Notes: a model not told the origin generated them from the sequence alone. A stretch of DNA of 64,000 nt from Lytechinus pictus (GCF_037042905.1 NC_087251.1:48672001-48736000); one strand, 5' to 3'; shown: positions 4,563-48,295, counted from the stretch's first letter. Numbers and translations: made by a program.

Positions 4563-4831
4563 TTCAGAGCAAAGGGGGTAGGATGTCTGGGTTTCCAAAG
4601 AAGGGTAAGTCTTTTCAAAGTGTTATGCAATGGGCCAGATCCATTGCTATGTCAGTGCATAGATTACATTATCTTATATCATCATAAATTATCATTAAGG
4701 AGGATGGAGGAAGGGAAATATTTGTTCGGCATTCTTCAAGTCCCTGGTTAGAAGTTACAAACCAAACTAGTCGATAAGTTGGGTATAGAAAGGAAAAAAA
4801 TATTCATGTATGTAATAGATGGCATTTTTAC

Positions 4832-5416
4832 CGTGCAGATACCGTGATGAGATTCTTGGGGTTGTAGGATACGCTAAAGTTGAAATGAAGTTGTTTCCTT
4901 AGAATTGGCAAAACGTTCAGCAACTCAGAAAAGTGTCCCCTGGTGGGCATCATCACGTGATCTCTTTTCAGCAATTTTAATCTGTCATAATAGGTTTTGC
5001 ATTTGGTAGACAGCTTAGAAAGGTATTCGGTAATGTTTATCTTCGCTGGCTTATTTTTGGCGACTTTTGGCTTGAAACATGATACCAGATCTTTGATTTG
5101 CAATCCATTGATCGTCATGAATGTAACCTTTGAACCAACATCCGAGGTATATTCCTGCCCAAATACAGCTAAGTTCATTCTGAAAACGACGTCGGCGTCG
5201 TCGATGACTTCCCCACAGCGGCTGTTGAGAAGGATACCAGAATTCCCGACAAGAGCACAAGACTTTACAGGGTGTTCGATCCAGTGAGTAAGATTCAATG
5301 TCCTCGATTTCCTTAGATCTTTGTATTTTTTCTTCATTGTCATGTCTCCAGGATCTACATCCGAACTGAATATTTGTATGGTCTCCCATGGTTTCATTCT
5401 CTTGTTAACCAAGTTT
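4832..5416 (-). CDS. ST8SIA: ST8Sia-like gene, catalytic exon with sialylmotif L
   Basis: CALVGNSGILLNSRCGEVIDDADVVFRMNLAVFGQEYTSDVGSKVTFMTIN; acceptor AG 5417-5418, donor GT 4830-4831, phases 2/2. Confidence 0.93.
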
Positions 5417-5734
5417 CTGTTTAAAACAAAATAAATCAGAAAATTGTCTATACTAATATTTATCGCTAGATGTATATATTAAGAATAAAACAATGTCTAA
5501 CATATATAAGCGAGTGTTTGGTAATTGTAATAAATAACTGATATTTTACATTTCTGTAATCTTGTCAACTGGCCTTACAAATTAATGTATGATATAGAGC
5601 TTTATATTTCTATCCTAATCTAATCTATCAAGTTCTGATTTGGGAAAATCAGCCTTTAATCATTTAAACTCTATCCTTTGTCGCCATTTTTTTTCACAAC
5701 CGTTCTAAGGTAATTTTACGTGTTACCCCCCAAA

Positions 5735-5960: not shown

Positions 5961-6361
5961 GGTGCGGCAATTTTGATGGCGCTGGTTTTCTTAACTTGCT
6001 TTGACGAATTGTGTCGAGTTGCAACATACAATTTAATGCCCAATTTTTCATGGCATACAATTAAGGCACAATGCAGCGCTAGGGGAGAAAAATTTGCGAT
6101 GATTTGACAGCGACACTATCTAGGGGGAAAAACGGCCCGTTACAAGTGCTCATATTGCTCCCTTACAGCATCTGACTGATGCCAGCCAGGGTCATACGCT
6201 GAAATCATGTCACTTCCAAATATTTAGGTCATAGGATTATTTGATTATTAAAAAAAAAAAAATTCTCACCTCGAAATGTGACAAGCGCCCCTTTCCCCGT
6301 CCTTAGATATGCCACGCGTCTATGACCGGCCGTGAATCGGTCTTGGTTAAATCTATAAGTC

Positions 6362-7150
6362 ATGTACATGTATAATTTCACACATTTGTATACTTTCTCC
6401 CATACTTGTACTGTATCAAAGCAATAGCTTTGATCCAGCTGAGGCATGGCGGCTTGTCATTGTTCAAAACCCACCTACACCCGACAAAAGAAATTATAAT
6501 TGGTATAGTGTCGAAAATCTGTTTATCTGACGGTCAGTCGGATAGGGGTCGCCCTGGCCACTAACCCGTCTCTGTGGTCTAGTGGTTAAAGCACCGGCGT
6601 TCAAAGGTTGGGGCCCGGGTTCGATTCCCGGCAGGTCATTTTTTCGGCATTGCCAATTTTTCCAAAGGGCAGATAGCTCTGGGAACCTTGATTTAAGCTA
6701 CGCTTACCATTGTTCTCTTCATCCATTTCTTTCACAAAATATTTAAATAAAAGAGTTGCCAAAGCTGTTGTACATGTATAATTTCACACATTTGTATACT
6801 TTCTCTCATACTTGTACTGTATCAAAGCAATAGCTTTGATCCAGCTGAGGCATGACGGCTTGTCATTGTTCAAAACCCACCTACACCCGACAAAGGAAAT
6901 TATAATTGTTATAGTGTCGAAAATCTGTCTATCTGACGGTCAGTCGGATCGGGGTCGCCCTAGCCACTCACCCGTCTCTATTGGTCTAGTAGTTAAGGCA
7001 CCGGCATTCAAAGCTGGGGGCCCGGGTTCGATTCCCGGCAGAGACATTTTGTCGGCATTGCCAATTTTTCCAAAGGGCAGATAGCTCTGGGGAACCTTGA
7101 TTTAAGCTACGCCTACCATTGTTCTCTTCATCCATTTCTTTCACAAAATA
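6362..7150 (+). repeat. Two head-to-tail ~406-bp units of a tRNA-containing repeat
   Basis: 'tgtacatgtataatttcacacatt' recurs at ~6363 and ~6769; each unit has a tRNA-like module (6568-6638, 6974-7046); homologous to the 37531-42345 copies. Confidence 0.9.
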
Positions 7151-7440
7151 TACATATTATATATGCCTCTATAATTTCAGTTTTTTGCTTCATACTTACT
7201 GTACATCAATGACAGATGATATGTTAAGCGTCCAGCTCTGTAACCCTTTATCAACAAGAGTCGTATGGGTGGTTTGCATGGCTAAGTCAATCGGGCAGAA
7301 TCCAAAATAGAAAACAAAGAATAAGACTTATTAAATTATAAGAATGTTATTCCAAGGTCTCGTCATTGAAATATGAGATTTAGGTTTTATGAGATCTAAT
7401 TATACTCGATATATTAATAGGCCTTACTTTAAGGCAAAGT

Positions 7441-9013
7441 CTGATTGATTGATTGATTTTATTCGTCAAGAATATCACAGGAGACTACAATGAAATTGAA
7501 GAATACCTTGACAGGATAGCCCATGAAAGCCGAAAGGCTTATTTCCAATGGGGTCCTATAGTTAGTATAAAACATTAACAAATTGTAACAAAAAGTATAA
7601 ACTACGACAAGTACTGGAATATGGTAAAAAAATAAAATACATACATACATATCCATCAGTCAAATAATTTGCAAACATCTGAAGCAAACGATAATCTTCC
7701 TAATATATGAAACAAGATTATATTTTAACATATTTTAACCCTACATTATCTACAATACTAGAAAACAAATGTACAAAATGTGTGATTTTTACTGGTAATA
7801 CTGTTCTCGAGTAGCTTCCAGTTTTAGGTGCTTCTTTAATGCACTCTTAAATTGAGAAAAAAAATTAACAGCTTTTACTTGATTAGGAAGAGCATTCCAA
7901 GATTGGATGCCATTAAAATAAAAAGTGTTCCCTATATGTCCTTCAGGTTTTGGTAATACAAAATTAAAATGACTATTTCGAGTATCGTACCTATGGATAT
8001 TTGATACACGGGTGAAATTATTTACTATATAATGATCTAATGTATCCGAATATAATATTTTATGCACGTGGTGTAATACTAATTGTTGTGACCTGTGATC
8101 TACATGAAGTAATATTGCCTTTTCAAGTTCATTACATCCGACATGTGCTCTTGGTCCTAAAACATTTATGTATCTGACAATTTTATTTTGAATTATTCTT
8201 AGCTTTTTCTTATCCGTAACACCCAGACTACCGTACCAAGCCGCATTAGCATAGTCGAATAGACATTGTATTAAAGCAAAGCATAAAATACGTCTAGACT
8301 TCATATTCAAACAGGTTTGATATCTATACAAAAATTTTGAGCGTGAATTTGGCTTTTTGGCGATTGAGTCTACCAAACCCGTCCATGATAGGTTACTTGT
8401 TAAATTAATTCCCAAATATTTTACTGAATCTTTTCTGTCAATTACCTGATTACTATATGAAACCTTGAAATCGTGTGTATATCTTAACTCTCGTTTCGAA
8501 CAAAATAAAATGCTTTCCGTTTTCCCAACGTGTAAACTAAGCTTGTTGTTAGACATCCATTCGATGCAATTTGCCAAATCTGCACTAAGTTTTTTATCAA
8601 TTATCTTGGGATTTGTATCTGAATATAGCAAGACACTATCGTCAGCATATAAATTAATTTAGATTCGTTAATACAAGTACACATATCATTGATGTAAGAC
8701 TTAAAAAGAATGGGGCCTAAAATGCTTCCTTGAGGGACTCCGCATTTAATAGGCAGTGAATCAGAAAGAACCGTCTGCATGGTAACTACTTGATGACGGT
8801 TAGATAAATATGATCTAAACCATGTCACACAAGCAGAGTCTAAACCCATCACTTCTAATTTCTTTAAAAGTATGTTATGATTTACAGTATCAAAGGCTTT
8901 TTGTAAGTCTAGGAGAACCATTCCAACCATGCGCCCATGTGAAATTCCGTTCCTGATAAGACATAAAAAGAATGGGGCCTAAAATGCTTCCTTGAGGGAC
9001 TCTGCATTTAATA
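7441..9013 (-). mobile_element. 5'-truncated CR1/L2-group LINE (RT C-terminal half, 3' UTR, (ATCA)n tail)
   Basis: LDLQKAFDTVNH, GVPQGSILGP, YADD (frameshift ~8650), KYLG, HRYDTR...WNALP; AATAAA then (AATC)n at 7441-7463 on minus. Confidence 0.9.
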
Positions 9014-21105: not shown

Positions 21106-24100
21106 TAGTCCAGTCAATCTAGCCAGAATAGGGGGGTAACCCACCACTAATTGCAACACGAGATATTCCACTGAAATGCTTTCCAGGAAGGTCCCCTAAA
21201 CAACATACTAAAAGTCCCAAGAAATCCGAGCAGTGGAAATTTATGAAATTTGCATATTATGCAAATTAGCCATGAAAAATGATATAAAGAAGGGAAATAA
21301 TCCAAAGATTACAAATTAAATGTCCAAAATAATTTGATTTGAATGGAAATTCATGATAAATAACTGAATTCAATGTTTTCAATCAAAAGTGCAAAAATTT
21401 CTACCTCATTTGCATATTATGCAAATAAGCATCCTTATATGGAAAAAATGTCAAGATATTGTGATTTTTCTCATATAGACTGCTTGAAAACATTTCATTA
21501 ATGTTGACATCAATATGATACTATATCACTAAGCACGAGAATTCATCCCAATGCCTGAAAATTAATTTGCATATTATGCAAATTAGCCATTTAAAAAAAT
21601 AGAAAATGAGGAAATTAATCCAAAGATTACAAATTAAATGTCCACAGCAAGTAATTTTGAACATTATGAATAAAATAAGTTCAATGTCTTTATTTAAAAA
21701 AGCTAGCAAATCTGCCTCATTTGCATATTATGCAAATAAGTATCCTTATATGGAAAATGTCAAGAAATTTAGATTTTTATCACATTGACTGCAGTGAAAA
21801 CATTTCAGTTTTTCAAATTAATATGCTGCTATCACTAAGCATTCAAATGTATCCTAATATGATTTATATTCAAGGAAAAATACTGGAAATATGTTCTTCG
21901 CTTCCTAAGCGTTTGTCTGACAAGATGATGGGATTGGCAAGAACAAAGCACAGTATTTGAATTGGTGTGTAGTTTGTTTGAGTTGACAACCCTTTCTTAT
22001 ATGGATTGTGGGAACGACTTAGACTTTCTTGAAATTTCAGCGCATAAACATGATAAAGGGAGGCCAGGAAAAGCAAACTTATGGCAGGTAAAATCTGATG
22101 AGTAGTATCATTAAAAAGTGCAGCAGAGATTCCGTCTGGCCTAGTAGCTTCATGCAGGTTGTTTTCTTTAACAATTTCTTCAGTAGTCTGGCTACACCTG
22201 CTTGACTAAACAATATGTTATCTGGCCATATCTGGGTCAGGACTGGGTCCCAGGACTTCAGCTTCATCATCATCATGATCAGTGGTGAATACTAAGACTA
22301 AAAATCTTCGCCTTCCTTTAATAATGATATTCCAATGTAGTCATAGCTATTGATATTAAGGGCTCCAAACATGCTAATTGTTACAGCCTGGATCATTGTC
22401 AATCCGGTCAACAAATTATGTATTATAGGCTTGTCTACAAACCCTCTTATGGTCCTCTTTAATGCATTGTAGCAATTCTGAGCTTTACCTTACTGATGCT
22501 TTTGGAGCTCTAAAATGTGCAAGCCTTCCTAGCCTTTCTCTAAAACTCTTGACATCTTCCGACACAACTTATGTCCATTCTCTCATTGAGACAACTTGTG
22601 TCGGAAGAAGACATGGTTAACGGTGTGTTCTTGTTAAAGTCCTCTTGATTGGCATTCAGTCTCCTATGCTCGACTTGTCAGATTTCAGTACAGATCTGTA
22701 TGATTGTCCAAAGTACATCTGCATGACACTATTAAAGTCAGCATTCCTCCAGAAGTACATCCTTAGTCGTGCCATAAAATTTTATTCCTCTGGATAACCT
22801 CACAGTATACCCATGAGTAGCACATTGTGGCAAATAAATCTTGGAAGTGGTACACACTGTCTAATCAATGTTGGATGGTATTTGATGGTGATGTTAAGGG
22901 TGTTCCAAGCAAGTACTCATGTTCACCACCAAGACAAGTGATGATGATGATGGGTTCTTGTAAAGCGTCGGTATCCGCCTCAGCTGGGCGCTCATGGCGC
23001 TTGCTCAAAATAGGAAATATCTCACAAATTTCAATGTCTTCAAACAGTGCTTAGGATCACCATTCAGTTCAAATACTGTCCTAGTAATGCTACAATTGAG
23101 TTATTCTTGTCTTGGGATAATGTTGGAGTGGGGAACAGAAAGGTCTTCAGGTAAGACTCAAAAGTTTATTGGGTCTCTGCTCTCCTGATAAATTGGGGAA
23201 GGCTATTCCACAGCTTTGGTCCAGAGATGTAGAAGGCTCTGTCACCCCAGGTTGTGTGGCTGAGAGATTCCCTCAGCAATGCTTGAGCTGCTGATCTGAG
23301 ACTGCGTGTTGGTCTATGCTGAGATAAGAGCTCTGAGATGTAGGGTGGAGATTTATCATTAAGCGCTTTAAATACAAGGACCCCAAGTTTATAAGCTAAT
23401 TGGTGTGCTACAAGGACCAAATATTCAAAGCTAATGTGCTTTTATTTGTACGGGTGTGACATCTTGTGCTGATCACTTGGCAATCCAGGAGTTGCTAGCG
23501 TGGACTATACTCTCAAGAAACGCAAAGTCTCTATACAAAGTCAAGAAGAGAGCAAGACTTGGATGGAAATAATGAAACATTCAAGCAGTGGGATTCATGT
23601 AGAATGGACTCATCATTGTACAATATGAGTGGGGTAACTGCTCGTGACAAAACTCAATATCAACCAAGCAAGAAGTATAGGGAAGGCCATCATGGTTAAT
23701 ACACATAATCTACATGGAATTTTAGAGGAAAGTATCACTTATGTGTTTCCTTGAATATTTATAACATGTCGGATGCTTATTTGCATAATATGTAAATTAC
23801 ACTTCAGATATTAAGCTGATTATTAATTTATTTGCCATTCTTAGTGATCACATCATATTGATCTAGACTGAAATGTTTTCATAACTGTTTTTGTGAGAAA
23901 AATCAAAATTTCTGGATTTTTTTCCATATAAAGATGCTCATCATGCAAATGAGGTAGATTTATTTACGATTTTTTATATAAAACATAAATAAATTTGTAA
24001 AACTTATCATGGGCTTCAGTTCAATTCGTATTGATTGCATTTGATTTCCAATATTTGGATTATTTTCCTTATTTGTAATTTATTATGGCTAATTTGCATA

Positions 24101-24755
24101 AAATGCAAATTTTGTGATTTTCCTATATGCTTGTATATTTAAGGACTTTTAATATGGTGTTTAGGAAACCTTCCTGTAAGGTATTGCCATATTCCAATTT
24201 CAATAGATAATCTACTTGCATTTTTTTAGGGATGTATCACCAGTGTGTTTTCTTGAATATTTATAACATGTTAGATACTTTTATTTGCATAATATGCAAA
24301 TTACACTACAGACACTAAGCTGAATACAAATGTATTCAACGTCCTTAGTGATAGCAGCATGTAAATTCCAACATTAATGAAATTTTCAAGCAGATAATGA
24401 GAGAATAATCACAATACCTTGACATTTTTCCATATAAGGATGCTTATTTGCATATTATGCAAATGAGGTAGATTTTTTGCACTTTTGACAAAAAACATTG
24501 AATACCGTTACTTATCATGAATTTTCGCTCAAATTGAATTGTTTTGGACACTCAATTTGTAATATTTGGGCTATTTTCCTTATTTTTCTAACTTGTTATG
24601 GCTAATTTGCATAATATGCAAATTTCATAAATTTCCACTGCTTGGATTTCTTGGGACTTTTAGTGTGTTGTTTAGGGGACATTCCTTGAAAGCATTGCAG
24701 TGGAATATCTCGTGTTGCAATTAGTGGTGGGTCAAACCCTATATTGACTGGACTA
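21106..24755. mobile_element. Decayed long-TIR DNA transposon (Academ-like by termini and TSD)
   Basis: Termini TAGTCCAGTCAAT...ATTGACTGGACTA; inverted homology over several hundred bp (21106-~21520 vs ~24350-24755); 3-bp TSD CTA (21103-21105, 24756-24758). Superfamily is inferred. Confidence 0.75.
22938..23425 (-). mobile_element. L2-type LINE 3' fragment nested in the long-TIR element
   Basis: YKLGVLVFKAL...PPYISELL...PTRSLRS...GDRAF...GPKLWNSLP; 3' end 'aagcgccatgagcgc...acgctttacaag' plus (CAT)n tail. Confidence 0.8.
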
Positions 24756-33049: not shown

Positions 33050-33900
33050 ATAATGCGAGCGCGAAGCGCGAGCTGAAAATTTGACTTTCCGACCTAAATA
33101 CTGGACATTCTAAGCACTTTTTGCAATCATGAAAAGAATAGGTATATAACTATATGATTGATGCGAGCGCGAAGCGCAAGCGGAAATAAAAATGAGATTT
33201 CAGACCTAAAAACAAGACATCTTAAGCACTTTTCTAATCATGAACAGGATAGGTATATAACTATACAATTGATGTGAGCGCAAAGTGCGAGCGGAAACAA
33301 AATTGAGATTTCAGACCCCAAAAACGAGACATTCTAAGCACTTTTCTAATAATGAAGAGGATAGGTATATAGCTATACACTTGATGCGAGCGCAAAGCAC
33401 GAGTGGAAATAAAAATGAGATTTCAGACCTAAAAACGGGACATCTTAAGCACTTTTCTAATCATGAACAGGATGGTATATAACTATACAATTGATGCGAG
33501 CGCGAAGCGCGAGCGGAATTAAAAATGAGATTTCAGACCTAAAAACAGGACATCTTTAGCACTTTTCTAATCATGAACAGGATGGTATATAACTATACAA
33601 TCGATGCGAGCGCGAAGCGCGAGCGGAATTAAAAATGAGATTTCAGACCTAAAAACAGGACATCTTTAGCACTTTTCTAATCATGAACAGGATGGTATAT
33701 AACTATACAATGATGCGAGCGCGAAGCGCGAGCGAAATTAAAAATGAGATTTCAGACCTAAAAACAGGACATCTTTAGCACTTTTCTAATCATGAACAGG
33801 ATAGATATATAACTATACAATTGATGCGAGCGGAAACAAATTGAGATTTCAGACCTATAATTGGGACATTCTATTCATGATTTGTAAATCAAGAAAATGA
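33050..33900. repeat. ~8 tandem copies of a ~110-bp unit
   Basis: 'gatgcgagcgcgaagcgcgagcgga...ttcagacctaaaaac...aactatacaatt' at ~33052, 33160, 33271, 33383, 33493, 33603, 33712, 33823. Confidence 0.92.
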
Positions 33901-34387: not shown

Positions 34388-34641
34388 CATCGGCAGAAAT
34401 CACAGAGGAGACAGGGGGACGTGTCCCCCTACCAAAAATAGTAGGGGGACACAATATCAAATGTCCCCCCTACTATTTTTGGTCTTTCATGGAGAAAACT
34501 ACATCACTACACAATCGAAATAATACCTTTTGGACTAAATGACCTTACATTTTGGGTGAAACACTTTTTTTTTCTTTGTTTTGCTTGTCAAATTTTCCAG
34601 GCCCTGGTCCCCCTACCTTTAGGGACAGATTTCCGCACATG
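34388..34641. mobile_element. hAT-type MITE (~250 bp)
   Basis: CATCGGCAGAAATC/GATTTCCGCACATG termini; TSD TCAACCCA/TCAATCCA; second copy ~38035-38292. Confidence 0.8.
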
Positions 34642-36137: not shown

Positions 36138-37481
36138 CTTGATTCAAATTTTATCAATGATGAAACTCCTCTTGGTCCGGCGTTTTGATGAACACACATA
36201 TACTGAAAAAAACTTTAAATCAAACACACTATTCTTATTTTACGATACATACAAATAAACATTTAAAATCTCTGATGGGTCTGTGACACTATCCAGATGC
36301 ATGCCTTGCATTTCACCAAATCATCATGATCAGAAGTCTTTGCAGCGTTTCGAAACAAATTTTCTTCTTAAAATTAAATCAAAACTTCAGAAGAATGTTT
36401 ATCTTCAATCTGCAATATCCGTTCGATAAATCCATATCCACAAAACAAATGCGTTTTAAAGGTTTATGATTTATTTGTATCTCCCTGCATTCCGAATATA
36501 GTGAATTATTCCCAAATGAATTTCCCGCATGCCTCAGACACCATTTTCCTCAGATCAATCGGTTTGTGTCTGTGCCAGCTGACGCCCTAAAATGCAAGAA
36601 TGGTGTTTAGCTCATCTGCCTCGCACATAGCATGCAAGCTATATACTGGCGGCTGCAGGGGATGCGCATGCACAGTAGATCACAATGCATCTTTTCATCT
36701 TCTCGACCTATCTCATGTTTCCCGTTTCATGAAGAATTGTTGAAATAACAAATGGAAAATTTCTGTAAAAAGTTTACTATAAGCCAATCAGATTGAATGA
36801 TTTCAGTAGCTTTCAATTGTTATTATGAATTTGTTATTATAAAAGGTTTTATGAAACGGGCCCCTGATCGGTGGTGATATAGAAATATGTTTTAAAGTAT
36901 GAAATTTGGACGATTAATGAACTTGACGGATGTGCCTTCCCAATATCAGAAAGCCGAGGAGACCACAAATTGGATAGATATCGGTTAAAAGAGGGAGTTA
37001 CAAAATTTAAGCACGTAGGCCATATTTCATGGATTTGTGCTATCGGGGAAAGAAGCATTACTTTACTCCGGTGGCACCTCAAAATTGTTCCTCTCATTAT
37101 GACATAAAACTTTCGCATCATTAGCTGTGCGATGGCAATGTATCGATAGATCTTATTTAAGATAAGCCAAAAGGGAATTTAATGAACGCCACTTCGTATG
37201 AGTGTAATATTTTAATCATTTTTGTTTTCAGAGTAATGAAGTTTTCAGTTGAGGAATGATGTTACAGTTATTAATGACTTGTAGGGATTATTACCAAGCA
37301 GTTAAAGATTTTTTGTGAATACGAGGCATTATTTAGTATACGTGTATCCATTCATCCCTTTAATATTATGGCAACGCCGCTATCATACAGCATGCAAAAT
37401 ATAATGGTGCTTACACACTCGTGCGTGCACGCTCTCACACACACCCTCACACACACACGCACACACACCCTCACTCACCCT

Positions 37482-37530
<49 letters not shown>

Positions 37531-37676
37531 TGTGAAAGAAATGGATGAAGAGAACACTTCGTATGTCATTGTTCAAAACCCACCTACACCCGACAAAGGA
37601 AATTATAATTGGTATAGTGTCGAAAATCTGTCTATCTGACGGTCAATCGGATCGGGGTCGCCCTAGCCACTTACCC

Positions 37677-37748
37677 GTCTCTGTGGTCTAGTGGTTAAGG
37701 CACCGGCGTTCAAAGCTGGTGGCCCGGGTTCGATTCCCGGCAGAGACA
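37677..37748 (+). tRNA. tRNA-like cloverleaf, anticodon TCA, inside repeat
   Basis: Same as 38657-38728 except one variable-loop base; followed by a T-run. Confidence 0.55.
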
Positions 37749-38290
37749 TTTTTTCGGCATTACCAATTTTTCCAAAGGGCAGATAGCTCTGGGGAACCTT
37801 GATTTAAGCTACGCCTACTATTGTTCTCTTTATCCATTTCTTTCACAAAATATTTAAATAAAAGAGTTGCCAAAGCTGTTGTACATGTATAATTTCACAC
37901 ATTTATATATATATATAAATGTGAGAAATCATACATGCACAACAGCTTTGGCAACTCTTGTATTCAAATATGTTATGACTTGTGAAAGAAATGAATTTAA
38001 TTTCTATCACCAGTCACAATATATATATATATATTATGGGCGGAAATCCCAGGGGGGAATGCGTCCCCTACCAAAAATAGTAGGGAGGACACATCAAACG
38101 TCCCCCCTACTATTTTTGGTCTTTCATGATGGAGAAAAATTTATCATTCACAATAAAAATAAAACATGTATTTTGGACTAATTGACCTTACATTTCGGGA
38201 TGAAAACCTTGTTGTTGTTTTTTTGTTTTTTTTTGCTTGTCAAATTTTCCAGCTCCTGGTCCCCCTACCTTTTGGGACAAATTTCCGCCC

Positions 38291-38324
<34 letters not shown>

Positions 38325-38656
38325 GGCATCACCAATTTTTCCAAAGGGTAGATAGCTCTGGGGAACCTTGATTTAAGCTACGCCTACCATTGTTCTCTTC
38401 ATCCATTTCTTTACAATATTTAAAAATAAAAGAGTTGCCAAAGCTGTTGTACATGTAAAACTTTACACATTTGTATGTATACTTTCTTCCATACATGTAC
38501 TGTATCAAAGCAATAGCTTTGATCCAGCTGAAGCATGGCGACTTGTCATTGTTCGAAACCCACCTTCACCCGACAAAGGAAATTATAATTGGTATAGTGT
38601 CGAAAATCTGTCTATCTGACGGTCAATCGGATCGGGGTCGCCCTAGCCACTAACCC

Positions 38657-38728
38657 GTCTCTGTGGTCTAGTGGTTAAGGCACCGGCGTTCAAAGCTGGG
38701 GGCCCGGGTTCGATTCCCGGCAGAGACA
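38657..38728 (+). tRNA. tRNA-like cloverleaf, anticodon TCA (38690-38692), inside repeat
   Basis: Acceptor GTCTCTG/CAGAGAC, D GTCT/AGGC, anticodon stem CCGGC/GCTGG with loop GTTCAAA, T CCGGG-TTCGATT-CCCGG; A and B boxes intact; T-run immediately after. Function unknown. Confidence 0.6.
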
Positions 38729-38822
38729 TTTTTTCGGCATCACCAATTTTTCCAAAGGGTAGATAGCTCTGGGGAACCTTGATTTAAGCTACGCCTACCA
38801 TTGTTCTCTTCATCCATTTCTT

Positions 38823-38861
<39 letters not shown>

Positions 38862-38865
<4 letters not shown>

Positions 38866-41800
38866 GGTCATGAGCCAAGGAGGGGTATCAGAACCTGACT
38901 GCTACTGTGGCGTTACACTGATTTACTAAGTGAGCCAGTACTGCCAGCAAACGCCAACGCCGAGCCCCAGGCGGCGGAAAATAACCTGGCAAACTCGGGT
39001 AACCTGAAAAGGGTAGTGGGACCCTGATGGAGGAAATGCCATCTAAAGGCGGAGGAATCATAATTGATCAACGACATCCACAACTCACCAACATGCAACT
39101 GTGGCCAGCATGGTGAGTCAAGGCCACACCCCCTTCAAGACTATGGCAGCACAAAGAAAGAAACGGCCCTCAGTCCCCAGCAGCTCTGGATTGCCCAGCT
39201 ACGGGAGCGGTTGTGGCAAGGAAGGAGCAGAGGGTGCTAAGAATCTCTGGGCTAGGACAGGCTCCTTAAAGGATGTGACCATCTGTACATATAATGTACG
39301 TTCCCTTTTAGGAGAGGATAGGCTATGTGAGCTGGAAAAAGAACTAGGCAACATCACATGGGACATAGTCGGATTGTGTGAGGTTAGACGCCGCGGGGAA
39401 CATCTACAACATCTGCTGTACACAAGGGGAAAGGAGAAAAGTAGCATAGGAGGGTAGGTTTCCTTATTCACAAGGCGATAGCATCCAATGTCATTTGCTA
39501 CAAGAGCACTTCAGACAGAGTATCCCAGATCATCCAAAAAATCTCCAAGAAACAAACCATGAAAATCATTCAAGTATACCTTCCAACATCTAGCCATACT
39601 GATGAAGAGGTTGATATGGTCTATGAGGAAATTGCTAAACTACTTGATGAGGACAAAGCAAACTTTACTATAGTTATGGGAGATTTCAATGCTAAAGTTG
39701 GTAAAATGGAAGATAATAGCGAGGTGATGCTAGGAAAATTTGGCACTAGGAATGATAGGGGAGATCGTCTACTGGAATTTGCTTTAAGCAGAGGTCTTGA
39801 GGTAATGACCTCTTTCTTCAAGAAAAAGGAACATCGAAAATGGACATGGCAAAGCCCAAATGGCACCACTAGGAACGAAATCGATTTCATTCTAACAAAC
39901 AGACCGGACATCGTAAAAGACGTTTCCGTGCTAAACCGCTTCAATACTGGAAGTGACCACAGGCTTGTGAGAGCAAAAATGCATGTTAATTTCAAGCTAG
40001 AAAGATGTAAACTAATAAGGAAGAAGAACGCCAGCCTAAATGTGGGCAAACTTAAACAATGTAAGGACGAGTTTCAACTACATTGTACAGCTAAGGAACA
40101 GATTCCAAGTGCTTCAAGATGAAGTAAACCAGGAAGATGTAAATGATATCTATGATAAATTCTATCACACTGTCCAAAATTGTGCTCTTGAGATGGCAGG
40201 GAAAAGGGAAAATCAAACAAATGACAAGATCACAAAGGAGACACTTGATCTGATGAGAAAAAGGAGACAGATGAAGGTATCAACACAGAAGGATAGCATA
40301 GAATATATGGAATTGTGCAAAACCATTAGAAAACGTATGAAAAGTGAAATTCGCAGCTTCAACATAAAAAAGTCCAAGAGATCATAAAAAATAATAGCAG
40401 CTACAAAGCCACCAAACGTAAACTCTCCAGTGGGAAATCACGACTGATAGCTATTAAAGGGGAGGATGGAAGTGTTATTCATGACAGAGACCAGATAATT
40501 AATCATGTGAAGGATTTCTATCAACACCTGTACTCCAGCAAGGTCCATGTTGACACACCAATCATTGCTCAAGATACAGATGAGGACATACCACCGGTAG
40601 GAGTAGACGAGGTTGCTAAAGCCCTGCAAGCAATGAAGCGTGGTAAAGCACCAGGTAGTGATGAGGTGCTGGTGGATGTCCTTAAAGATGGAGGTGATGT
40701 CATCCTGGAACAGCTGGCCAAGCTGTTTACACTCTGTTTAGTAAAAACACAAACACCAGACAGCTGGAACAATGCAATCATAATCCTCATCCACACGAAA
40801 CTGAGGATACACAAAGGATATTAAAATGTATAGGCCAATTAGCTTACTTTCAAATACCTACAAATTATTTACAAAAGTCCTAACAAACAGAATCACTGGA
40901 ACCCTAGATTTTAACCAACCGAGGGAACAAGCCGGATTCAGAAGTGGTTTCTCTACTACAGACCATCTTCACACACTTAACCAACTATTAGAGAAGACTT
41001 GCGAATACAGACAACCCCTGTGCGTGGCATTTGTAGACTTCGCACAAGCTTTTGACAGTGTAGAATTTCAGGCAGTAATAACAGCCTTACAGGTACAAGG
41101 TGTGCACCATAATTACATCAAACTCATTCAGGAAATGTATAGCCAAGCAACTGCAACCATTCACCTGCACAAAGACAGTGATGAATTCCCCATTAACAGA
41201 GGAGTGCGACAGGGAGATACCATTTCACCCAAACTGTTCAATGCTGCACTGGAGGAAATAATACGTAAATTAGACTGGGAAAGTACGGGGCTAAACATTG
41301 AAGGTGAGTGTCTCCACCACCTGAGATTTGCCGATGATATCATTCTAATCACTGATGATGGCCACAAGCTAGAAAATATGCTCAACGATCTCAACACTGA
41401 AAGTAACAAAGTAGGTCTGAAGATCAACATGAAAAAGACAAAAGTAATGTTCAACAAATTTGCTAAGGAGGAAAGAATCATAATGGATAATTCTGAAATC
41501 GAGAAAGTAGATCATTATATCTACATTGGGCAACACGTCACAATGGATCATGAACAACTGGATGAAGTTAAAAGGAGGACAAGAGCTGGATGGATCGCTT
41601 TTGGGAATTTCAATGACATTATGAAGAGCAATATGCCAATTTGCCTTAAGAGAAAAGTATTTAATCAATGCGCTATACCGGCAATGACCTATGGTTCTGA
41701 AACCTGGTCTGTAACAAAGAAAATGGAACAGAAATTAAAAACCACTCAACACAGTATGGAACGTATAATGCTACGGATATCAAAACGTGACAGGAAAACC

Positions 41801-42108
41801 ATACAATGGATTAGGAGCCAGACTAGAGTAATAGACATAATCAAAGCAATTAAATCAACGAAATGGAGATGGGCTGGCCACCTTGCAAGATCACATGATA
41901 ATAGGTGGACCAAACGCATCATAGAATGGAGACCATGGCTAGGATCACGAAATCGGGGTAGACAAAAATTGAGATGGAGTGACGAGCTCACAAAATTTAT
42001 TGGCATAAATTGGATTGCTTCAGTACAAGACAAGCACCTTTGGCACCAACTTGAGGAGGCCTTCGCCTTGCAGTGGGCTGAACATGGCTGATATGATGAT
42101 GATGATGA

Positions 42109-42112
<4 letters not shown>
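38862..42112 (+). mobile_element. Near full-length RTE-clade LINE (APE endonuclease plus RT), inactivated
   Basis: ICTYNVRSL, WDIVGLCEVRR, MGDFNAKVG, NEIDFIL, GSDHRLV; YRPISLL, RGVRQGDTISP, LRFADDI, YGSETW, RWAGHLAR; several frameshifts and a stop; (GAT)n tail; flanked by (TA)n. Confidence 0.95.
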
Positions 42113-42186
<74 letters not shown>

Positions 42187-42193
<7 letters not shown>

Positions 42194-42345
42194 AAGTTAT
42201 ACATGTACTACAGCTTTGGCAACTCTTTTATATTTAAATATTGTGTGAAAGAAATGGATGAAGAGAACAATGGTAGGCGTAGCTTAAATCAAGTTTCCCC
42301 AGAGCTATCTACCCTTTGGAAAAATTGGTGATGCCGAAAAAATGT
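42187..42345 (-). repeat. Inverted fragment of the tRNA-containing repeat
   Basis: Reverse complement of the unit's 3' part, ending at the tRNA terminator; shares 'catcacc/gggtagat' variants with 38324-38825. Confidence 0.85.
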
Positions 42346-43739
42346 ATCTTATATATACATATTTATAATTTCACCCTTCTTATCGGATATTAAAGGTCTG
42401 TTGGGAAAGTATACCTCAACCTCGTTCCTATTTAATTCCTCCTTTATATTCATGAAAAGCCAAATCCCCGTCAGAATCGGTAATGTTTTACTAATATCTT
42501 ACTGTCCGATTTATCCACGCGCTGCATGTTGCTATAGTATCAAACTATAATCGACAGGTCAGCAATTTAATACGTGATTATAGTGTTTGACGATCGGTCG
42601 GTCACTTTCGCAGTCGAATTTGGTATGAAACGATCTATCGAATGCTTCACTTCTCTCACTGAATTCACTTTTTTTTCCTTAAAAAATAAACGAAAACCGA
42701 CATTATTTGTATTTGGAAAGGGCAAATAAAAGCAATATTTTGTGAGTGGGCATATCCGTCATTTTAATAATATCATCGATAAGTGATTTTGAACTTTATT
42801 TACTATAACATTTAATAATAGACTAAAAGAAAGTGTGATTACGCCATTCATTTTAGACCAAAAAAGCAGAGCTGTGTATGAGAAATAGGGGGAGTCTAAA
42901 GTAGCATATAGGGCGGCCTCCCGGCATATGCTATAGCAGAATTTAAAAGAAAGAATGGGAAATAGGAAGACAGGAAGTGTATGAAAAAGAAAGGTCTGGG
43001 CCTGGTCAACTGAATATTGAGGGAAAGTATATGATGTGCCCCCCCCCCCCCCCTCGGCATCAAAATATCATGCGCTGGACCTGTAACTTGATGCCATAGA
43101 ATCATAAATGGGTATGAATGCCAAATATTACACCATCAAGCCCCGTCTCACTCTTTTCCCCATCTAACTTTGATTACAACCACTGCACTAATTCCCCATG
43201 CATGGTTTTAAGTGCATTTTGACGGCATCATGAATTCATCTTCTTTTCCATCCTACATTCATTCGTGCATGATACACCCACTCACTTACACACACTCACG
43301 CCGTTTACTGCCCCTACAACTCATTTGCGGTAACACATTCACACATAATTTAGCGTTTCGTGGAAGGATCACTTATCGGATGTTTTGTCCGTCACTTACA
43401 ATAGTAACAGTGCTTCTCCGCAAATCAAAATCAATGAAAGTTGTCTGATAAAACAGGGCTTTTTTGGTAAAATGTCCGACAAGTCTTTTCATGAAACGTT
43501 CATTAGATCACCTCTGTCACATTAAATTGCGTTGGTTTATTTTCTGCATGAGCTGTGTTTTATCAAATTTTATGCATCAATGTCGTCCCAATAATTATTC
43601 ACCAATATTCCATATTGAAATTTAAATACTTGCTTTTCACTAGTCTTAACTTACAGAAATGAAAAGATGCTACTTTTAATAATAATATTTTTTTTTCTTT
43701 TATCCTCTTAATCGAGGGAGTTATTCACAATAACATGTA

Positions 43740-44915
43740 CATATGTATACAAACAATTAAAAAAAACAAAATCAATTCACTTCAATAATGCAATATTTTT
43801 TTTAATATCACATTTTTTCAAAATTCCGAACTTGCTTTTTTGTTTACATAAACTTTCTAAATAAATAATCATAGTAAGCTTGAATTCAATCCTTAAAGAA
43901 TTCGCATCATATCTTTTTCCTTTGAATATGCTTTTTATGTAATTTCGATAAATAACAAATTGAGCAATAACACAAAATAAATTACACATAACATTGCTGG
44001 AACTTTGCAGATCATAACCTATGATTAATGTTTTTCATCTATAGAAATAGTAATCTTGAAAATATAAAATACCAACCTTTCTATAATTTTCCAAAAAAAA
44101 ATCGAACATATTTACAATACAGTATGAAATGAAAAGTGGTATCAACTTCTCCGCAAATGTTACAAGAGTTGTTTTCTACTACATGCCACTTAAATAAATT
44201 GTATCTTGAGGGTAAAATCTTGTTCAAAAATTTAAAACTAAATTGTCTAATTCTATTATCCACAATTAAATGCAACTTAAAATAAAATACATGGTTCCAA
44301 CTAAAGGAAACTGGTAATGAAAAAAGATTAGACCAAAACGAAACAATGCCTGGTTCTTCCGATACCTCCGAACATAATAAAGAATATATCTTTCTTGTTG
44401 GTAAATAATCTAGAGTTATTTGTTCTCCACTTTTTAATGAAATTAAGATTCGTTCACTTTTTTTTAATTCGAGTGGATAATTTTCCTTAAACAACTTATT
44501 CAACCAATAAACAGGAAAAGACTTTTTTAATTTAGCATATTCTAAATCAAATAAAAGCTGAGAGGAATAGACAGATTTATTTAAAATATTTGGTGCTAAC
44601 CACTGACGATTTCTTATAACATCAATAACTCTAATTATACCTGCATGCTTCCATTTCTCAAATACCAACATACGTTTATTAAAAGTAATATTGCTGTTAT
44701 TCCAAATGATTTCATTTTCAATGTTTTTTACTCCAAATATACCAATATATCTTAACTTAGACCAGCTACAAAAAAAATCATGGTAAAAACTAGGTATATT
44801 TGCTTTTGTACAAAGAAAATTCATATCTTTTGTTGATATATTGTATTCAAAACATAAAGGAATTTCACCAATCTTTGATAACCAATAATTAAAAAGAAAT
44901 TTCCAACTACTTTGC
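43740..44915 (-). mobile_element. Tx1/L1-group LINE 3' fragment
   Basis: IIWNNSNI...KWKHAGI, FKFLNKILP, CNICGEVDTTFHFILYC (C-terminal CCHC), AT-rich codons. Confidence 0.8.
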
Positions 44916-45027
44916 ATTGTTTATTTTTATTCAATCGTGTTCCACAAATTAATCAAGTATTTTGTAAAATAAAATATCGTTCGCTTCCCGCAACATACTA
45001 ATGCAAATCTTCATGTTTAAAATCAGT

Positions 45028-47490
45028 TAATAATAATAATAATAATGGTGGCTACTTTTATAGCGCACAGGTCCACCTTTCGGTGCTCATGGCGCTTCAA
45101 GGAAAATAAACACAAAACATAACAACAATAGAAAACGAAAAAGAATAGAATTTGAATTCTCCTGAATAAACACTATTATACTGTTAATGGGAGATCAAAT
45201 AAGTTTTCAACTGGGACTTGAATGTTTCTGTTGATGAAATTTGGCGTAATTGGATAGGCAATTGATTCCATAGCTTTGGTCCTATAACAGAGAATGCATG
45301 GTCCCCCCAATTTGTGTTTTGTTCTGGGTGTCTGGAGCAATAGAGCATCAGATGATGAGCGGAGACTACGTGAAGGCTGATATTTTGAGATAGAGCTGCG
45401 GAGATATGTGGGGAAGAGAGTATAAATTGAATGATGTATTAGTAAAAGAATTTTTAAGGTGATTCGTTTATCAACAGGCAGCCAATGTAAGGACTGGATG
45501 ATTGGCGAGATGGAGTCATACTTTTTAGTGTACGTTAGGAGACGGGTAGCAGAGTTTTGTAGACGTTGAAGTTTTGTCAAATAGTTTTGTGGGAGGTTAC
45601 AGAACAATGAGTTTGAAAAATCTAAACGGGAGGAAATCAATGCATGGATAAGTATCTCGGCTGCAGGTTTAGACAGTGATTTTCTGATGAAACTCAAATT
45701 ACGAAGTTGATTTCTGACATTTTGTTGGACTTGAGTGATATGATTGCGAAAAGTCATTTCCTGATCAAATATAACCCGAAGACTACGGGCTATTTTAGAC
45801 GGAGTGATACAAGTGTTACCAAGATGGACGTGACATGACTGAAAGTCAATTTTCCCAAGCATAAACTTCGTTCCAAGTATTAAGAATTTTGATTTATCAT
45901 CGTTCAGTTTCAGGCAATTAGATACAAGCCATGTCTTAAGTCTTGTAGACATGTCAGTGACGACATTGAAGGTTGAAAAGACAAATAGAGTTTTATGTCA
46001 TCGGCATAACAATGGTATTTTATGCCATGTTTACAAAATATCTTGCTGATTGGTTGCATATAGAGGGAATAGAGCAGTGGACCTCCTACAGAGCCCTGGG
46101 GTACACCAAACTTCAAAGTAGTTAAACCTGAGATAGAGCTATCGATTCTAACATATTGAGATCGTTCTGATAGATAGGATATGAACCAAGCAAGGGCAGT
46201 CCCCTTGATACCTAATGAGTTAAGCCTTTCAATTAGGAGAGTGTGATCTACTGTGTCAAATGCTGAACTCAAGCATAATGAGAGCCGTAATGTTACCATT
46301 ATCCATTTCTCTATAAATTGTATCTGTTAAGTTAACTAGAAGTGTTTCTACATTATGACCAGGCTTGTACGCGGATTGATGTGGGTCAAGTAACTCATTC
46401 TCTTGTAAATATGATGTTTGTTGTGAGAAAACAACTCTTTCCAGCAGTTTACCTTAAAAAAACAAGTTTGATATCGGGCGGTAATTTTTCAAACACTCTT
46501 GATCTAAGCCTGATTTTTTCAGCGTCGGATGGATGACAGCTATTTTACAGACCTGTGGTACAACTCCCGAACTAAGACTTGTATTTACTATTCTAGTAAT
46601 GACAGGCAACAGAACTGTGGAACATTTCTTAACCAAATCCGTTGGGATTGGGTCAAGTTCACATGATTTGTTTGGAGAATTTTTGATAAATACTTCCATC
46701 TCACTGATAGTGACAGGTCGAAATTCCCTCAATTCTGACTTAATTTCGCTTACAGTGTCATTTGAGTGTAAGGCAGGAGTTTGGAAGCACTGCCGGATTG
46801 TTAGAATCTTATCTACAAAATACTGATCGAAGCAATTTGCAAGCTCAGCCTGATCACCATGAGTGAGATGTTCTGGTAAAGGAGATTTTTGTTTCCCGTA
46901 AAGCAAATCATTGGCAACTTTGTACATTTTTGTGTGTGTTTTTCCTTCAATCCTCAATCTTTTTCGAATGGTATTGTAACTTAGCATTCTTTATCAAAGT
47001 ATTGACATGTTGCTTTTGGTCATGATATATCTGCTTGTGAATCTCCAACCTAAATCGTCTTTCTAATTGTCTTCGAATCAATTTTTCTTGAGTAATTTCT
47101 GGGGTGTTCCAATCAGTATTGGGGTGAATTGTTACCTTCGGCTGCTTCTCAGGTGCCAACTTTTTAAGAGCATAGCTGAGTAAGGTATTATACATATCCA
47201 CTTCTTCATCGACACCGTTACATGTAAACAACCTGATATAAGAGACTTAACATGGGTGTCATCTGCAAACTCTTTGGGGTCAAAGGATTTCAAATTTCGT
47301 GTTGTTACTATTTTCTTCTGGTTTGTTTGTTTCGGAAGGCTTAATTCACACATCAGTGCTGAATGGTCAGATATACCTTCTACAACACAAATATTACAAA
47401 GGTTAACAGTATTCTCATTATGGGTCATGAGCAAATCTTGAACATGGCCACGGTTATGGGTTGGCTCATTAATATGTTGAACCATGTTGT
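45028..47490 (-). mobile_element. Decayed L2-clade LINE (endonuclease C-terminus, RT, 3' stem-loop, (ATT)n tail)
   Basis: QHINEPTHNRGH..D, SDH, KSCELDPIP, NYRPISNL, SAFDTVDH, GVPQGSVGGP, HCYADD, SRLDFSNSL, LHWLPV; many frameshifts. Confidence 0.92.
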
Positions 47491-48295
47491 AGGCTGTTTT
47501 TTGAAGGGGAAAACAGCTCCAGACTTCTTTGGAATGGGATCACTGATGATAAAATTTTCAGCAATAACTGGGAAGATTAAGTGAATATAAAAAAAAAATA
47601 GAGCTTCCCTCTTTTATTTATTTTTTTCTAGAAATTTAAACAAAAGTAATAGAAAGAGTTTGAGAAAAGATAGTATTCAGACTTGCTGTCTGTCTTAGAA
47701 AATTCGTTGCTTGAATGAATGATTTTCATTATTATTATTCAAAAGTCTATTGAAATCCATTCATTATGGATTTTCCTTTTAATGTCGGAGGCACATGAAG
47801 AGGCTTGTTTTGTTAAGAATATATTTTACACTTAAGCACAAGCATTTTCAAACAGTTGTTGATTTTATTCACGATAACAAATACATACTGGAACTATTTT
47901 TATTCTACTACCAAATGAATTGAGAGAGAATACAAATTCTAGGGTGAAACAAACACTGGCTTTCAAAAAATCATCGCCCATCAGAAAAAGGTTACATTAA
48001 TTTTTTTATCATAATTCGGTGAAAGCATGGGCCACCATGCATCGTATACAGTGACGTTTGGATAAATTACGTGACTTAAAATTGATTGTTGTAACTCCTA
48101 TCAGAGACTTAGTTCTTGCCCCATGCAAAAAAGAGACCTTAAGGAAAATTACGCAAATCAGAATAACAATTTTTTAAATATATTTCTCTGTCGATTTCGT
48201 GAAATGTCTGACTAAATATTGATTAATGTCATTAGTGTCTATCAGTTTTAATCAAGATTTATATTGAGACGATTTGTGTAGCTTCTGCTACAACA

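Follow-up and report, generated by a model that had tools for sequence, protein, structure and literature searches.

The known non-autonomous parasites of Penelope-like elements (PLEs) are the hammerhead retrozymes and the derivatives of Chlamys. In the cited portions of Craig et al. (2021, PMC8557442), Naiad insertions are truncated at the 5' end, form partial tandems, can carry at that end an inverted copy that is itself 5'-truncated, may have a tail, favour (TA)n and contain no hammerhead; the same portions document multicopy head-to-tail insertions of the non-autonomous Chlamys PLEs. The PLE tail is described there as 30-40 nt long (also in PMC11167929). For PAc, an autonomous, hammerhead-bearing Poseidon PLE of Anolis, copying is reported to begin at two neighbouring internal sites that are located in an AC-rich stem-loop and lack homology to the cleaved target, and AT-rich DNA is cut on both strands in vitro (Frangieh et al., 2024, PMC11167929, in the sections cited). 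Animal non-LTR retrozymes are 150-450-bp non-coding tandem units with a GC content below 50% and highly self-paired RNA, and every unit contains the type I hammerhead that defines the group (Cervera and de la Pena, 2020, PMC7229834, in part), and their dependence on PLEs is proposed (PMC7229834; Li, Clavereau and Pollet, 2026, preprint). Helenus/TRIMp3 elements are short non-autonomous retroelements with a tRNA-like sequence within the repeated unit and have two LTRs, a PBS, a PPT and, in animals, 4-bp TSDs (Kojima, 2024, PMC10886601, in the excerpt used here).

In this study, we analysed a 64,000-nt stretch of Lytechinus pictus DNA (the window), in which an initial annotation had flagged positions 37531-42345 as a tRNA-bearing element mobilised by a PLE. 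The 406-base unit found there resembles Naiads and the Chlamys derivatives (such as MRC1) in being inserted head-to-tail as partial or multiple copies, in its truncated 5' ends and inverted 5' copy, in its microsatellite targets and in lacking a hammerhead; it differs in carrying a tRNA module, of which the cited portions of PMC8557442 describe none for Naiad or Chlamys elements. Chlamys derivatives also generally share the 3' end of a known autonomous family, whereas the partner of the unit is a putative one. The unit is like the retrozymes in size, non-coding tandem structure, GC content, self-paired RNA and proposed PLE dependence, but has a tRNA-like module instead of the hammerhead. Like PAc, it has two alternative 3' ends, a predicted AC-containing stem-loop at one of them and AT-rich targets that would be cut on both strands; unlike PAc, it lacks a hammerhead, and its ends coincide with short microsatellite matches. 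It shares a short length and an internal tRNA-like sequence with Helenus but none of the LTR, PBS, PPT or TSD features, the TSD being judged at one locus (c1). With tRNA-derived SINEs (SINE2) it shares tRNA-like A and B boxes and high abundance, but its tRNA is internal and followed by T6, no copy starts there and these copies have no tail like that of the adjacent LINE. A literature search found no description of a 406-base tRNA-bearing repeat. Taken alone, the locus is of modest value; an abundant, tRNA-bearing, ribozyme-less PLE parasite would widen the known class.

Insertions in the flagged interval

The interval is not a single element. It is a nest of independent insertions, a hot spot that holds at least four insertions of the unit together with a LINE and a MITE (Table 1). 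The unit accounts for 1113 of the 4815 bases (23%), and the remainder consists of the 3.25-kb APE+RT LINE, the MITE and microsatellite. Part of the MITE matches 34426-34636 at 82%. The LINE, which we take to belong to the RTE clade, has its APE and RT domains in frameshifted pieces and ends in a (GAT)n tail.

Table 1. Features of the interval and of related loci, in window coordinates (U, position in the 406-base unit)
Feature	Position	Strand	Remarks
Copy c1, tandem of 1.95 units	6363-7151	+	U1-U406-U380; outside the flagged interval; tRNAs more decayed
(CA)n(TA)n microsatellite	37434-37530		Left part of the target tract; TRF
Inverted stub of the unit	37531-37556	-	U349 to ~U375; 3' end (site A) faces outward into (TA)n
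Junction filler	37557-37563	+	7 nt
Copy c2	37564-37909	+	U93-U406 then U1 to U26-30; 3' end at site B in (TA)n
Leader of c2	37598-37676	+	Antisense to the tRNA and its trailer; 0/1000 shuffles reach the alignment score
tRNA-like cloverleaf of c2	37677-37748	+	72 nt, type I, anticodon UCA; ARAGORN; Rfam RF00005, 62.2 bits
Diverged copy	37912-37996	-	U359 to U30; tail-to-tail with c2; 3' end also at site B
MITE	38037-38291		Unrelated to the unit; TIRs; inside (TA)n
Copy c3, partial tandem	38324-38823	+	U283-U406 then U1 to ~U370; 3' end at site A in (TA)18
Predicted three-way junction	38442-38529	+	z -1.96; 9/200 shuffles fold as well
Leader of c3	38578-38656	+	Antisense to the D arm, T arm, 3' acceptor strand and tRNA trailer
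tRNA-like cloverleaf of c3	38657-38728	+	72 nt, anticodon UCA; ARAGORN; Rfam
LINE	38862-42110	+	Unrelated to the unit; same TA tract; Pfam PF14529/PF03372 (APE endonuclease) and PF00078 (RT)
(AT)28(TG)14 microsatellite	42111-42193		Tandem-repeat search
Copy c4	42188-42344	-	U275-U406 then U1-U22; 3' end at site B, continuous with (CA)n
Possible tiny inverted stub of c4	42361-42374	+	U6-U19; weak

Unit coordinates U1-U406 correspond to window positions 6363-6768. The anatomy given in the initial annotation was recovered. The head-to-tail partial tandems comprise 1.2 units in c3 and 1.95 units in c1, the permuted fragments start at U93, U283, U275, U359 and U1, and the inverted stub is present. 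AATAAA lies at U384, the motif CATTGTTC occurs twice per unit and the hairpin ATCAAAGC/GCTTTGAT is located at 38504-38523, while a poly-A tail and a TIR are indeed lacking in the unit. In addition, no LTR signature was seen in it, and the tandem contains no ORF longer than 100 aa.

The copies are closely related. c2 is identical to c1 in 328 of 346 aligned columns, the two repeats inside c3 have 0/89 differences and c3 differs from c4 at one of 89 bases over their shared part. The 5' end of c3 lies at the unit position directly after the T6 run, and that of c4 coincides with the last bases of the tRNA-like sequence. The diverged copy matches c1 in 71 of 85 columns; it was rejected as the inverted stub of c3 because it is too different from c3.

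Comparison of the unit with the LINE, including both LINE ends, revealed no similarity (172 and 44 of 200 shuffles scored as well). With nothing in common and no (GAT)n tail on the unit, the LINE was dropped as the mobilising partner. The same comparison bears on whether the unit could be a tRNA-derived SINE that a LINE, for instance this neighbour, has mobilised, with the tandems arising later. The A- and B-box regions of the tRNA-like module are intact and a LINE does sit in the same TA tract, but none of the six 5' ends coincides with U206, where the tRNA begins, three pieces extend 110-205 nt further upstream, and the likeness to either LINE end and the (GAT)n tail are missing. T6 and T5 runs follow the tRNA, and with T6 behind it the module cannot act as a SINE head. 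A SINE origin is refuted for these copies, none of which begins at U206, and we hold it to be quite improbable for the unit at large.

In assembled contigs the unit is very abundant, and 6963 contigs of run X1 align to one unit. Their summed depth, which is not a copy number, is 1e5-1e6 vs 28-50 for the listed long contigs. Metagenome contigs scanned for exact motifs gave no match. For annotation, the point of practical concern is that tRNA scanners call such copies 'tRNA-SeC' or suppressor genes.

End sites and junctions

The 3' ends were said to lie often near TTTCACA, and this was borne out: three of six fall at U370-380 (site A) and three at U22-30 (site B), about 55 nt apart. The chance that six random ends fall into any two 15-nt arcs is P=0.0005, a statistic from six ends in one window, with the near-identical c3 and c4 among them. 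The six pieces have six different 5' ends. The 3' ends fall at 3-6-nt matches to the microsatellite; five of the six in the 64,000-nt window enter (TA)n or (CA)n, and the sixth enters TA-rich sequence. The association with (TA)n holds at most ends but is not exclusive, as (CA)n is also a target; the 3' end of c4 runs into (CA)14. In run X1, the best-supported true unit end (site B) enters (CA)n in 46 contigs vs (TA)n in 24, among the 16 of 415 loose ends listed; several at 6634-6637 and 6681 were disregarded because they stem from indels found only in the reference copy. The endonuclease of the putative partner probably prefers TA/CA microsatellites and would be of the Naiad or Neptune type.

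The inverted 5' stub is clear at c2 and weak at c4, where 13 of 14 positions match and 6 of 1165 AT-matched background windows score equally well; none was seen at c1 or c3. A stub with its 3' end outward is as shown in the Fig. 2 legend of PMC8557442. The inversion junction had been placed at the CATTGTTC motif. The motif is nearby, but the join is not clean: the first base of c2 (U93) precedes motif 1 by 3 nt, the break in the stub falls within motif 2 (U349), and seven foreign bases separate the stub from the main copy. This filler with 2 nt on each side forms an 11-mer that recurs at 37190-37200; for comparison, of 9776 11-mers of matched GC content taken elsewhere in the window, 44 are also present in the 1-kb flanks. 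The filler was probably templated from the nearby flank.

Alternatively, the unit could be a dispersed satellite with no dedicated RT, whose extrachromosomal circles or cDNA are captured at fragile microsatellite breaks through microhomology-mediated repair. The filler matches flank 365 bp upstream with 2-nt overlaps, which may be a repair-type footprint, the ends sit at short microsatellite matches, and unrelated elements accumulate in the one tract. Captured circles, however, should be cut anywhere, yet all six 3' ends use two sites while the 5' ends vary, and both stub and main copy have their 3' ends outward. We therefore regard capture as improbable.

Rolling-circle elements have one fixed and one variable end, head-to-tail tandems, internal hairpins and AT-rich sites, and Helitron termini are 5'-TC and CTRR-3' with a subterminal hairpin. 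The unit could be such an element (Helitron/Helentron, DINE-1-like) seen from its minus strand; the fixed end would then be the origin, the variable end the terminator, and the tandems by-products. Its fixed and variable ends, tandems, hairpins and AT-rich sites agree with this. The unit has two alternative fixed ends, not one, neither carries 5'-TC or CTRR-3', and stubs in inverted orientation at the variable end are what is described for PLEs; a rolling-circle origin is accordingly rather improbable.

The absence of a TSD was confirmed at 6363-7151, where the left flank is not a microsatellite and no duplication abuts both ends; ends inside microsatellites cannot decide the matter. This result weighs against a Helenus-type TRIM in which U1-U372 (TG...CA) is an LTR with the tRNA inside and U373-U406 a 34-bp internal part. 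c1 does start with TG at U1 and ends 8 nt past ...CA at U372, and Helenus LTRs hold tRNA-like sequence (PMC10886601, in the excerpt used here). In addition to the lack of a 4-bp TSD at c1, no purine tract abuts U1 and no tRNA-type PBS follows U372, five of six pieces do not respect U1 as a boundary, three of them continuing across it as far as U22-30, and there are inversions. Such a structure is very improbable here.

The tRNA-like module and its antisense leader

T6 follows the c2 cloverleaf; in c3, T6 lies at 38729-38734 and T5 at 38747-38751. The cloverleaf has a 7/5 fold, a 4-nt variable loop, A73 and G32, and its best Rfam model is the generic tRNA RF00005. The 'SeC' label of ARAGORN merely follows the UCA anticodon. 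tRNA-Sec has a long variable arm and an extended acceptor/T stem; the length of 72 nt, short variable loop, 7/5 fold and A73 rule out this identity. The nearest natural comparators are Gly-TCC tRNAs, identical at 52 of 72 positions and at 12 of 14 around the anticodon, among 66 tRNA calls from 64 viral-collection loci that were chosen by shared D-/T-arm letters and are not host tRNAs. The module, which resembles Gly-TCC or Glu, probably goes back to a short-arm tRNA of the ordinary kind.

The initial annotation had speculated on a link between the UCA anticodon and UGA-containing or selenocysteine-encoding ORFs, for which we found no support. In favour of a working opal suppressor or selenocysteine helper for such a partner ORF, the tRNA has a clean cloverleaf with T6 behind; the anticodon positions are absent among the 40 of 70 variants listed (four runs), and Sec-encoding Naiads occur in clams and spiders, according to the cited text. 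On the other side, the features named above, G32 included, are unlike tRNA-Sec, TCC is one letter from UCA, and the tRNAs of the copies decay with unpaired changes. Naiad recoding of in-frame UGA is itself attributed to SECIS elements in the source text. We give the suppressor idea almost no credence. For the role of the module, a passenger relic has about an even chance; a Pol III/TFIIIC chromatin or promoter aid is possible but doubtful, and a processing signal a little more doubtful.

The tRNA is preceded by a 79-nt leader that copies it in antisense but omits the anticodon arm; in c3, a 19-nt gap lies opposite that arm. The match was reached by 0/1000 shuffles in two of four copies and was weaker in c1b and c1a (20 and 35 of 1000; duplex, 22 and 83 of 1000). 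The leader is probably an old inverted copy of the tRNA, of the kind that PLE 5' inversions make. Five of six transition mismatches between the c3 leader and tRNA are G-U-compatible on the tRNA strand (p=0.11), as are 5/5 in c2 and c1b, which are not independent. In the model, the leader masks the cloverleaf in long RNA, and the resulting rod is favoured over the cloverleaf by ~23 kcal/mol in the predicted fold. No rod or cloverleaf pair is changed on both sides among the four copies, which are 96% alike and too similar to inform covariation.

The unit RNA is predicted to be strongly self-paired (MFE -137 kcal/mol, z -6.8, 0/100 shuffles), less so in c1b (z -3.3). With the tRNA removed, the flanks alone pair only marginally better than shuffles (22/300). 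Site B lies in the loop of the first stem-loop in the predicted three-way junction, which contains the ATCAAAGC/GCTTTGAT hairpin. Rfam at E<=10 gave 117 matches with no ribozyme family, and only the tRNA exceeded the gathering score; the CUGANGA core is absent on both strands of four loci. The miRNA-type Rfam matches stem from a palindrome at 37843-37978 and from (TA)n.

Proposed mobilisation

The anatomy (partial tandems, varied 5' ends, inverted stub and microsatellites) fits the earlier reading of a PLE-mobilised, tRNA-bearing element, but mobilisation by a PLE is only inferred, because no autonomous partner was found. Pfam detected no GIY-YIG family in 166 of 170 window ORFs of at least 70 aa, the other four lying in an AAAG microsatellite, and a loose GIY-YIG pattern had no match in six frames of the window. 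A text search of the Naiad/Chlamys supplement, which names no sea urchin, with three short motifs gave one match, inside GC-rich coding-type sequence. We consider it reasonably probable that the unit, which is non-coding and has no ribozyme, parasitises a Penelope-like retrotransposon.

Under this PLE reading, a tandem locus would be read through into multi-unit RNA; read-through is invoked since a Pol III transcript begun at the tRNA promoter would terminate at T6. The GIY-YIG endonuclease of the partner would nick either microsatellite strand, and reverse transcription would start inside the RNA at one of the two observed TTTCACA-containing sites. Copying would stop at variable points and give the fragments and partial tandems observed. 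A second, inverted piece would sometimes be added at the 5' end, as seen once and weakly a second time. The distance of ~55 nt between the end sites, vs the 30-40-nt PLE tail, speaks against the PLE reading, as does the position of the ends at 3-6-nt microsatellite matches, given that PAc initiates where there is no such homology. If it is correct, the unit would provide a short non-coding substrate for the RNA features (U370-U30 end) recognised by a microsatellite-targeting PLE.

Alternatively, the unit may be a ribozyme-free retrozyme in which host tRNA-processing enzymes replace the hammerhead. Multi-unit RNA would switch between rod and cloverleaf; in the rod, the leader would hide the tRNA and leave only the anticodon arm protruding, while in the cloverleaf, RNase Z (and RNase P) would cut and thereby set where units end. 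Copies of the RNA would then be placed in microsatellites by a PLE protein. A cloverleaf that serves as a processing signal gated by an antisense leader would give retroelements a previously undescribed means of cutting concatemers. The leader complementarity beyond chance, the G-U-compatible mismatches and the 5' ends at U270-283 point in this direction, and the favoured rod and the lack of covariation in four copies point away from it; on balance we find it unlikely. The stretch U270-283, around the tRNA 3' end, contains two of the six 5' ends in the window and one of two contig ends chosen by hand from run X17 (p 0.016 and 0.002, post hoc). RT stalling at a stable helix explains these 5' ends as well as RNase Z cutting does.

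Composition of the interval 37531-42345

The analysis drew on the window, four public sequencing runs taken as contigs (among them X1, X14, and X17), and published papers. Besides LINE remnants, the AT-rich window holds exons of several Tmem26 paralogues and a sialyltransferase gene. In a self-comparison, four of its loci were found to carry the 406-bp non-coding unit, whose positions U1-U406 are numbered on window 6363-6768. The copies are c1, a 1.95-unit tandem at 6363-7151 with two tRNA copies (c1a and c1b), and c2, c3, and c4 and their neighbours in 37531-42345. The initial annotation read this interval as one tandem-plus-inverted architecture. Tandems, inverted pieces, and microsatellite flanks are all there, but only 1113 of the 4815 bases are unit, and the remainder includes an unrelated LINE and a MITE. 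The LINE, which we take to be an RTE, shares no sequence with the unit (172/200 and 44/200 shuffles score equally at its two ends). The interval is several independent insertions nested in one microsatellite.

Table. Features of the interval 37531-42345 and of the rest of the window
Feature	Position	Strand	Details
(CA)n(TA)n microsatellite	left edge of interval, before inverted stub		
Inverted stub of unit	37531-37556	-	U349 to about U375
Filler	between inverted stub and c2		7 foreign bases
Copy c2	37564-37909	+	U93 to U406, then to U30
Diverged inverted copy	37912-37996	-	U359 to U30; 71/85 columns identical to c1
MITE	38037-38291		TA-flanked; 10-bp terminal inverted repeats; partial 82% match at 34426-34636, 3.6 kb upstream
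Copy c3	38324-38823	+	U283 to U406, then to about U370
(TA)18	between c3 and LINE		
LINE	38862-42110	+	apparently full-length; inserted in (TA)n; frameshifted pieces with APE and RT domains; (GAT)n tail
(AT)28(TG)14 microsatellite	between LINE and c4		
Inverted copy c4	42188-42344	-	U275 to U22
Sialyltransferase (GT29) coding pieces	3340-5478	-	
Decayed LINE remnants	7792-8978 and 44084-47539	-	RT or zf-RVT matches
280-500-bp repeat family	21106-24755		direct and inverted copies
Tmem26-family exon cluster	25224-63206	-	exons of several paralogues; 7 ORFs match Pfam PF09772
Tandem array	33053-33832		110-bp period, 7.1 copies

Insertion ends, junctions, and probable mobilisation

With the tRNA strand taken as sense, all six 3' ends in the window lie at two sites only: site A, U370-380 (c1, the stub, and c3), and site B, U22-30 (c2, the diverged copy, and c4). 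The probability of six random ends clustering at two such sites is 0.0005. For the stub and c3, the alignment continues through TA letters up to U387, and the ends were set where unit-specific letters cease. The six 5' ends are all distinct (U1, 93, 275, 283, 349, and 359). In X1, the best-supported true loose ends, among the best 16 of 415 rows, join U22 to (CA)n (46 contigs) and U30 to (TA)n (24 contigs). The unit is abundant: X1 has 6963 contigs on it, and the other three runs taken as contigs have 25, 24, and 55. X19, a marine metatranscriptome recorded as RNA, contains 34% of the unit's sampled words.

c2 and the stub meet 5'-to-5', with their 3' ends facing outward. This inversion junction had been placed at CATTGTTC, a motif present twice per unit. 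It is indeed near or inside the motif, but the break lies 3 nt ahead of the first CATTGTTC and within the second, with the 7-nt filler between. An 11-mer spanning the filler with a 2-nt overlap on each side (37555-37565) recurs 365 bp upstream at 37190-37200 (chance, 44/9776 matched 11-mers); the filler is likely a templated insertion made on closing the junction. A candidate 14-nt inverted stub adjoining c4 is weak, as 6/1165 background windows score as well. Two pairs are tail-to-tail, c2 with the diverged copy and c3 with c4; their sequences differ near the ends, and they are best read as separate opposite-strand insertions.

The absence of a target site duplication (TSD), noted initially, holds at c1, where none was found adjoining the copy; at the other copies, the flanking microsatellite would mask one. 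In the left flank of c1, 16/18 positions of 6322-6339 are complementary to 6622-6639, where the first tRNA of c1 has its 3' end, and the match takes in a variant seen in that tRNA copy alone. Candidate explanations are a small inverted stub, a quasi-palindrome correction, and chance. Eighteen nt past the 3' end of c1, 7170-7179 is a 10-nt same-sense match to the site-B end (U9-18; 9/1165 background windows).

As described in PMC8557442, insertions of Naiads, a group of Penelope-like elements (PLEs), are partial tandems truncated at the 5' end; frequent features are an inverted 5' copy, a tail of 30-40 bp, and a (TA)n bias, and there is no hammerhead. In the same paper, non-autonomous members of the Chlamys group form multicopy tandems. 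Like Naiads as described there, the unit shows tandems, polar ends, an inverted 5' stub, and microsatellite flanks, and its window copies contain no hammerhead core and no Rfam ribozyme match. PAc, the Poseidon PLE of Anolis, cleaves both strands of AT-rich DNA and begins reverse transcription at two internal sites at an AC-rich stem-loop (PMC11167929, in the part available). The unit likewise has two 3' sites, and site B falls within the loop of a predicted stem-loop. Two features count against the fit: the 3' sites are ~55 nt apart, unlike the 30-40-bp Naiad tail in that text, and a unit/microsatellite match of 3-6 nt occurs at every 3' end, unlike PAc, which is described as needing no microhomology. 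The initial proposal of a tRNA-bearing, PLE-mobilised element is partly supported. The unit, which has no long ORF, works like a non-autonomous PLE, is a candidate member of that class, and is probably mobilised by PLE machinery. Tandem copies would yield a multi-unit read-through RNA, which a putative partner PLE protein would copy in trans.

Spread as a satellite driven by repair is unlikely, and a rolling-circle element slightly more so. A retrozyme was rejected, since the unit lacks a hammerhead (compared with the available portions of PMC7229834 and of the preprint by Li, Clavereau & Pollet, 2026). Identity with the Helenus TRIM was also rejected, on comparison with the accessible part of PMC10886601, and a Helenus origin is highly improbable. 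Neither a tRNA-bearing PLE parasite nor the 406-bp repeat was described in the literature listings searched; the family may be recorded under another name in Repbase, Dfam, or subscription journals.

The tRNA module and its antisense leader

ARAGORN called three copies tRNA-SeC, a label taken from the anticodon. Rfam scored them as generic tRNA (62.2, 60.9, and 37.8 bits). The cloverleaf has 72 nt, a 7-bp acceptor, a 5-bp T stem, a 4-nt variable loop, A73, and the anticodon loop G32-U33-UCA-A-A. tRNA-Sec is long-armed. Given this length, the 7/5 stems, the short variable loop, and the Rfam result, tRNA-Sec identity was rejected. The suggested link between the UCA anticodon and selenocysteine is unsupported, and a role for the tRNA as a functioning suppressor or Sec helper is extremely unlikely. 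The comparison set was 66 tRNA calls at 64 loci of a viral collection, chosen for matching D- and T-arm letters. In this set, Gly-TCC was nearest (best 52/72, with 12/14 around the anticodon), followed by Gly-GCC (51), Pro (50), and Glu (48-49). TCC is one letter apart from UCA.

Downstream of the tRNA are T6 and T5 runs, so a Pol III product would be a ~76-nt RNA, not the whole unit. None of the window copies of the unit begins at the tRNA start, which stands against a SINE; this identity was rejected for the copies examined here, and a SINE is very unlikely overall. Most likely the tRNA is a passenger, or a helper via its Pol III promoter. It is doubtful that the cloverleaf is a host-enzyme cleavage site standing in for a hammerhead. 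Some 5' ends do lie near the tRNA end at U276 (U275 in c4 and in one X17 contig, U283 in c3), giving p values of 0.016 (2/6) and 0.002 (3/8), both post hoc and with two contig ends hand-picked from the best 16 rows. Stalling of reverse transcriptase at a 10-bp helix there explains these ends as well.

The unit folds on the tRNA strand into a long rod of -137 kcal/mol (0/100 shuffles), and on the minus strand at -131.5 kcal/mol. The rod forms because the leader, the 79 nt upstream of the tRNA, is antisense to it: the leader aligns to the reverse complement of the D and T arms, the 3' acceptor strand, and the trailer, leaving a 19-nt gap opposite the anticodon arm. The alignment score was reached by 0/1000 shuffles in c3 and c2, 20/1000 in c1b, and 35/1000 in c1a. 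In a duplex test, c3 gave -50.9 kcal/mol vs -34.9 ± 4.3; for 60 natural tRNA leaders, used as a control, z was -0.38 at the median and -2.29 at the lowest. The predicted pairing probability of the acceptor stem is 0 in 4/4 copies within the long RNA, where forcing the cloverleaf would cost ~23 kcal/mol, and near 1 in 3/4 copies when folded as a short Pol III-type RNA. The simplest origin of the leader would be an inverted partial copy inserted 5' of the tRNA, as PLE insertions make. On the question of selection for this pairing, 5/6 transition mismatches in the c3 leader are G-U-compatible on the tRNA strand (p=0.11); no double (paired) changes were found among the four copies. A leader variant with five changed positions within 6545-6564 occurs in X1, X14, and X17; judged by eye, some of its changes gain and some lose rod pairs. 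It represents a subfamily useful for covariation testing.
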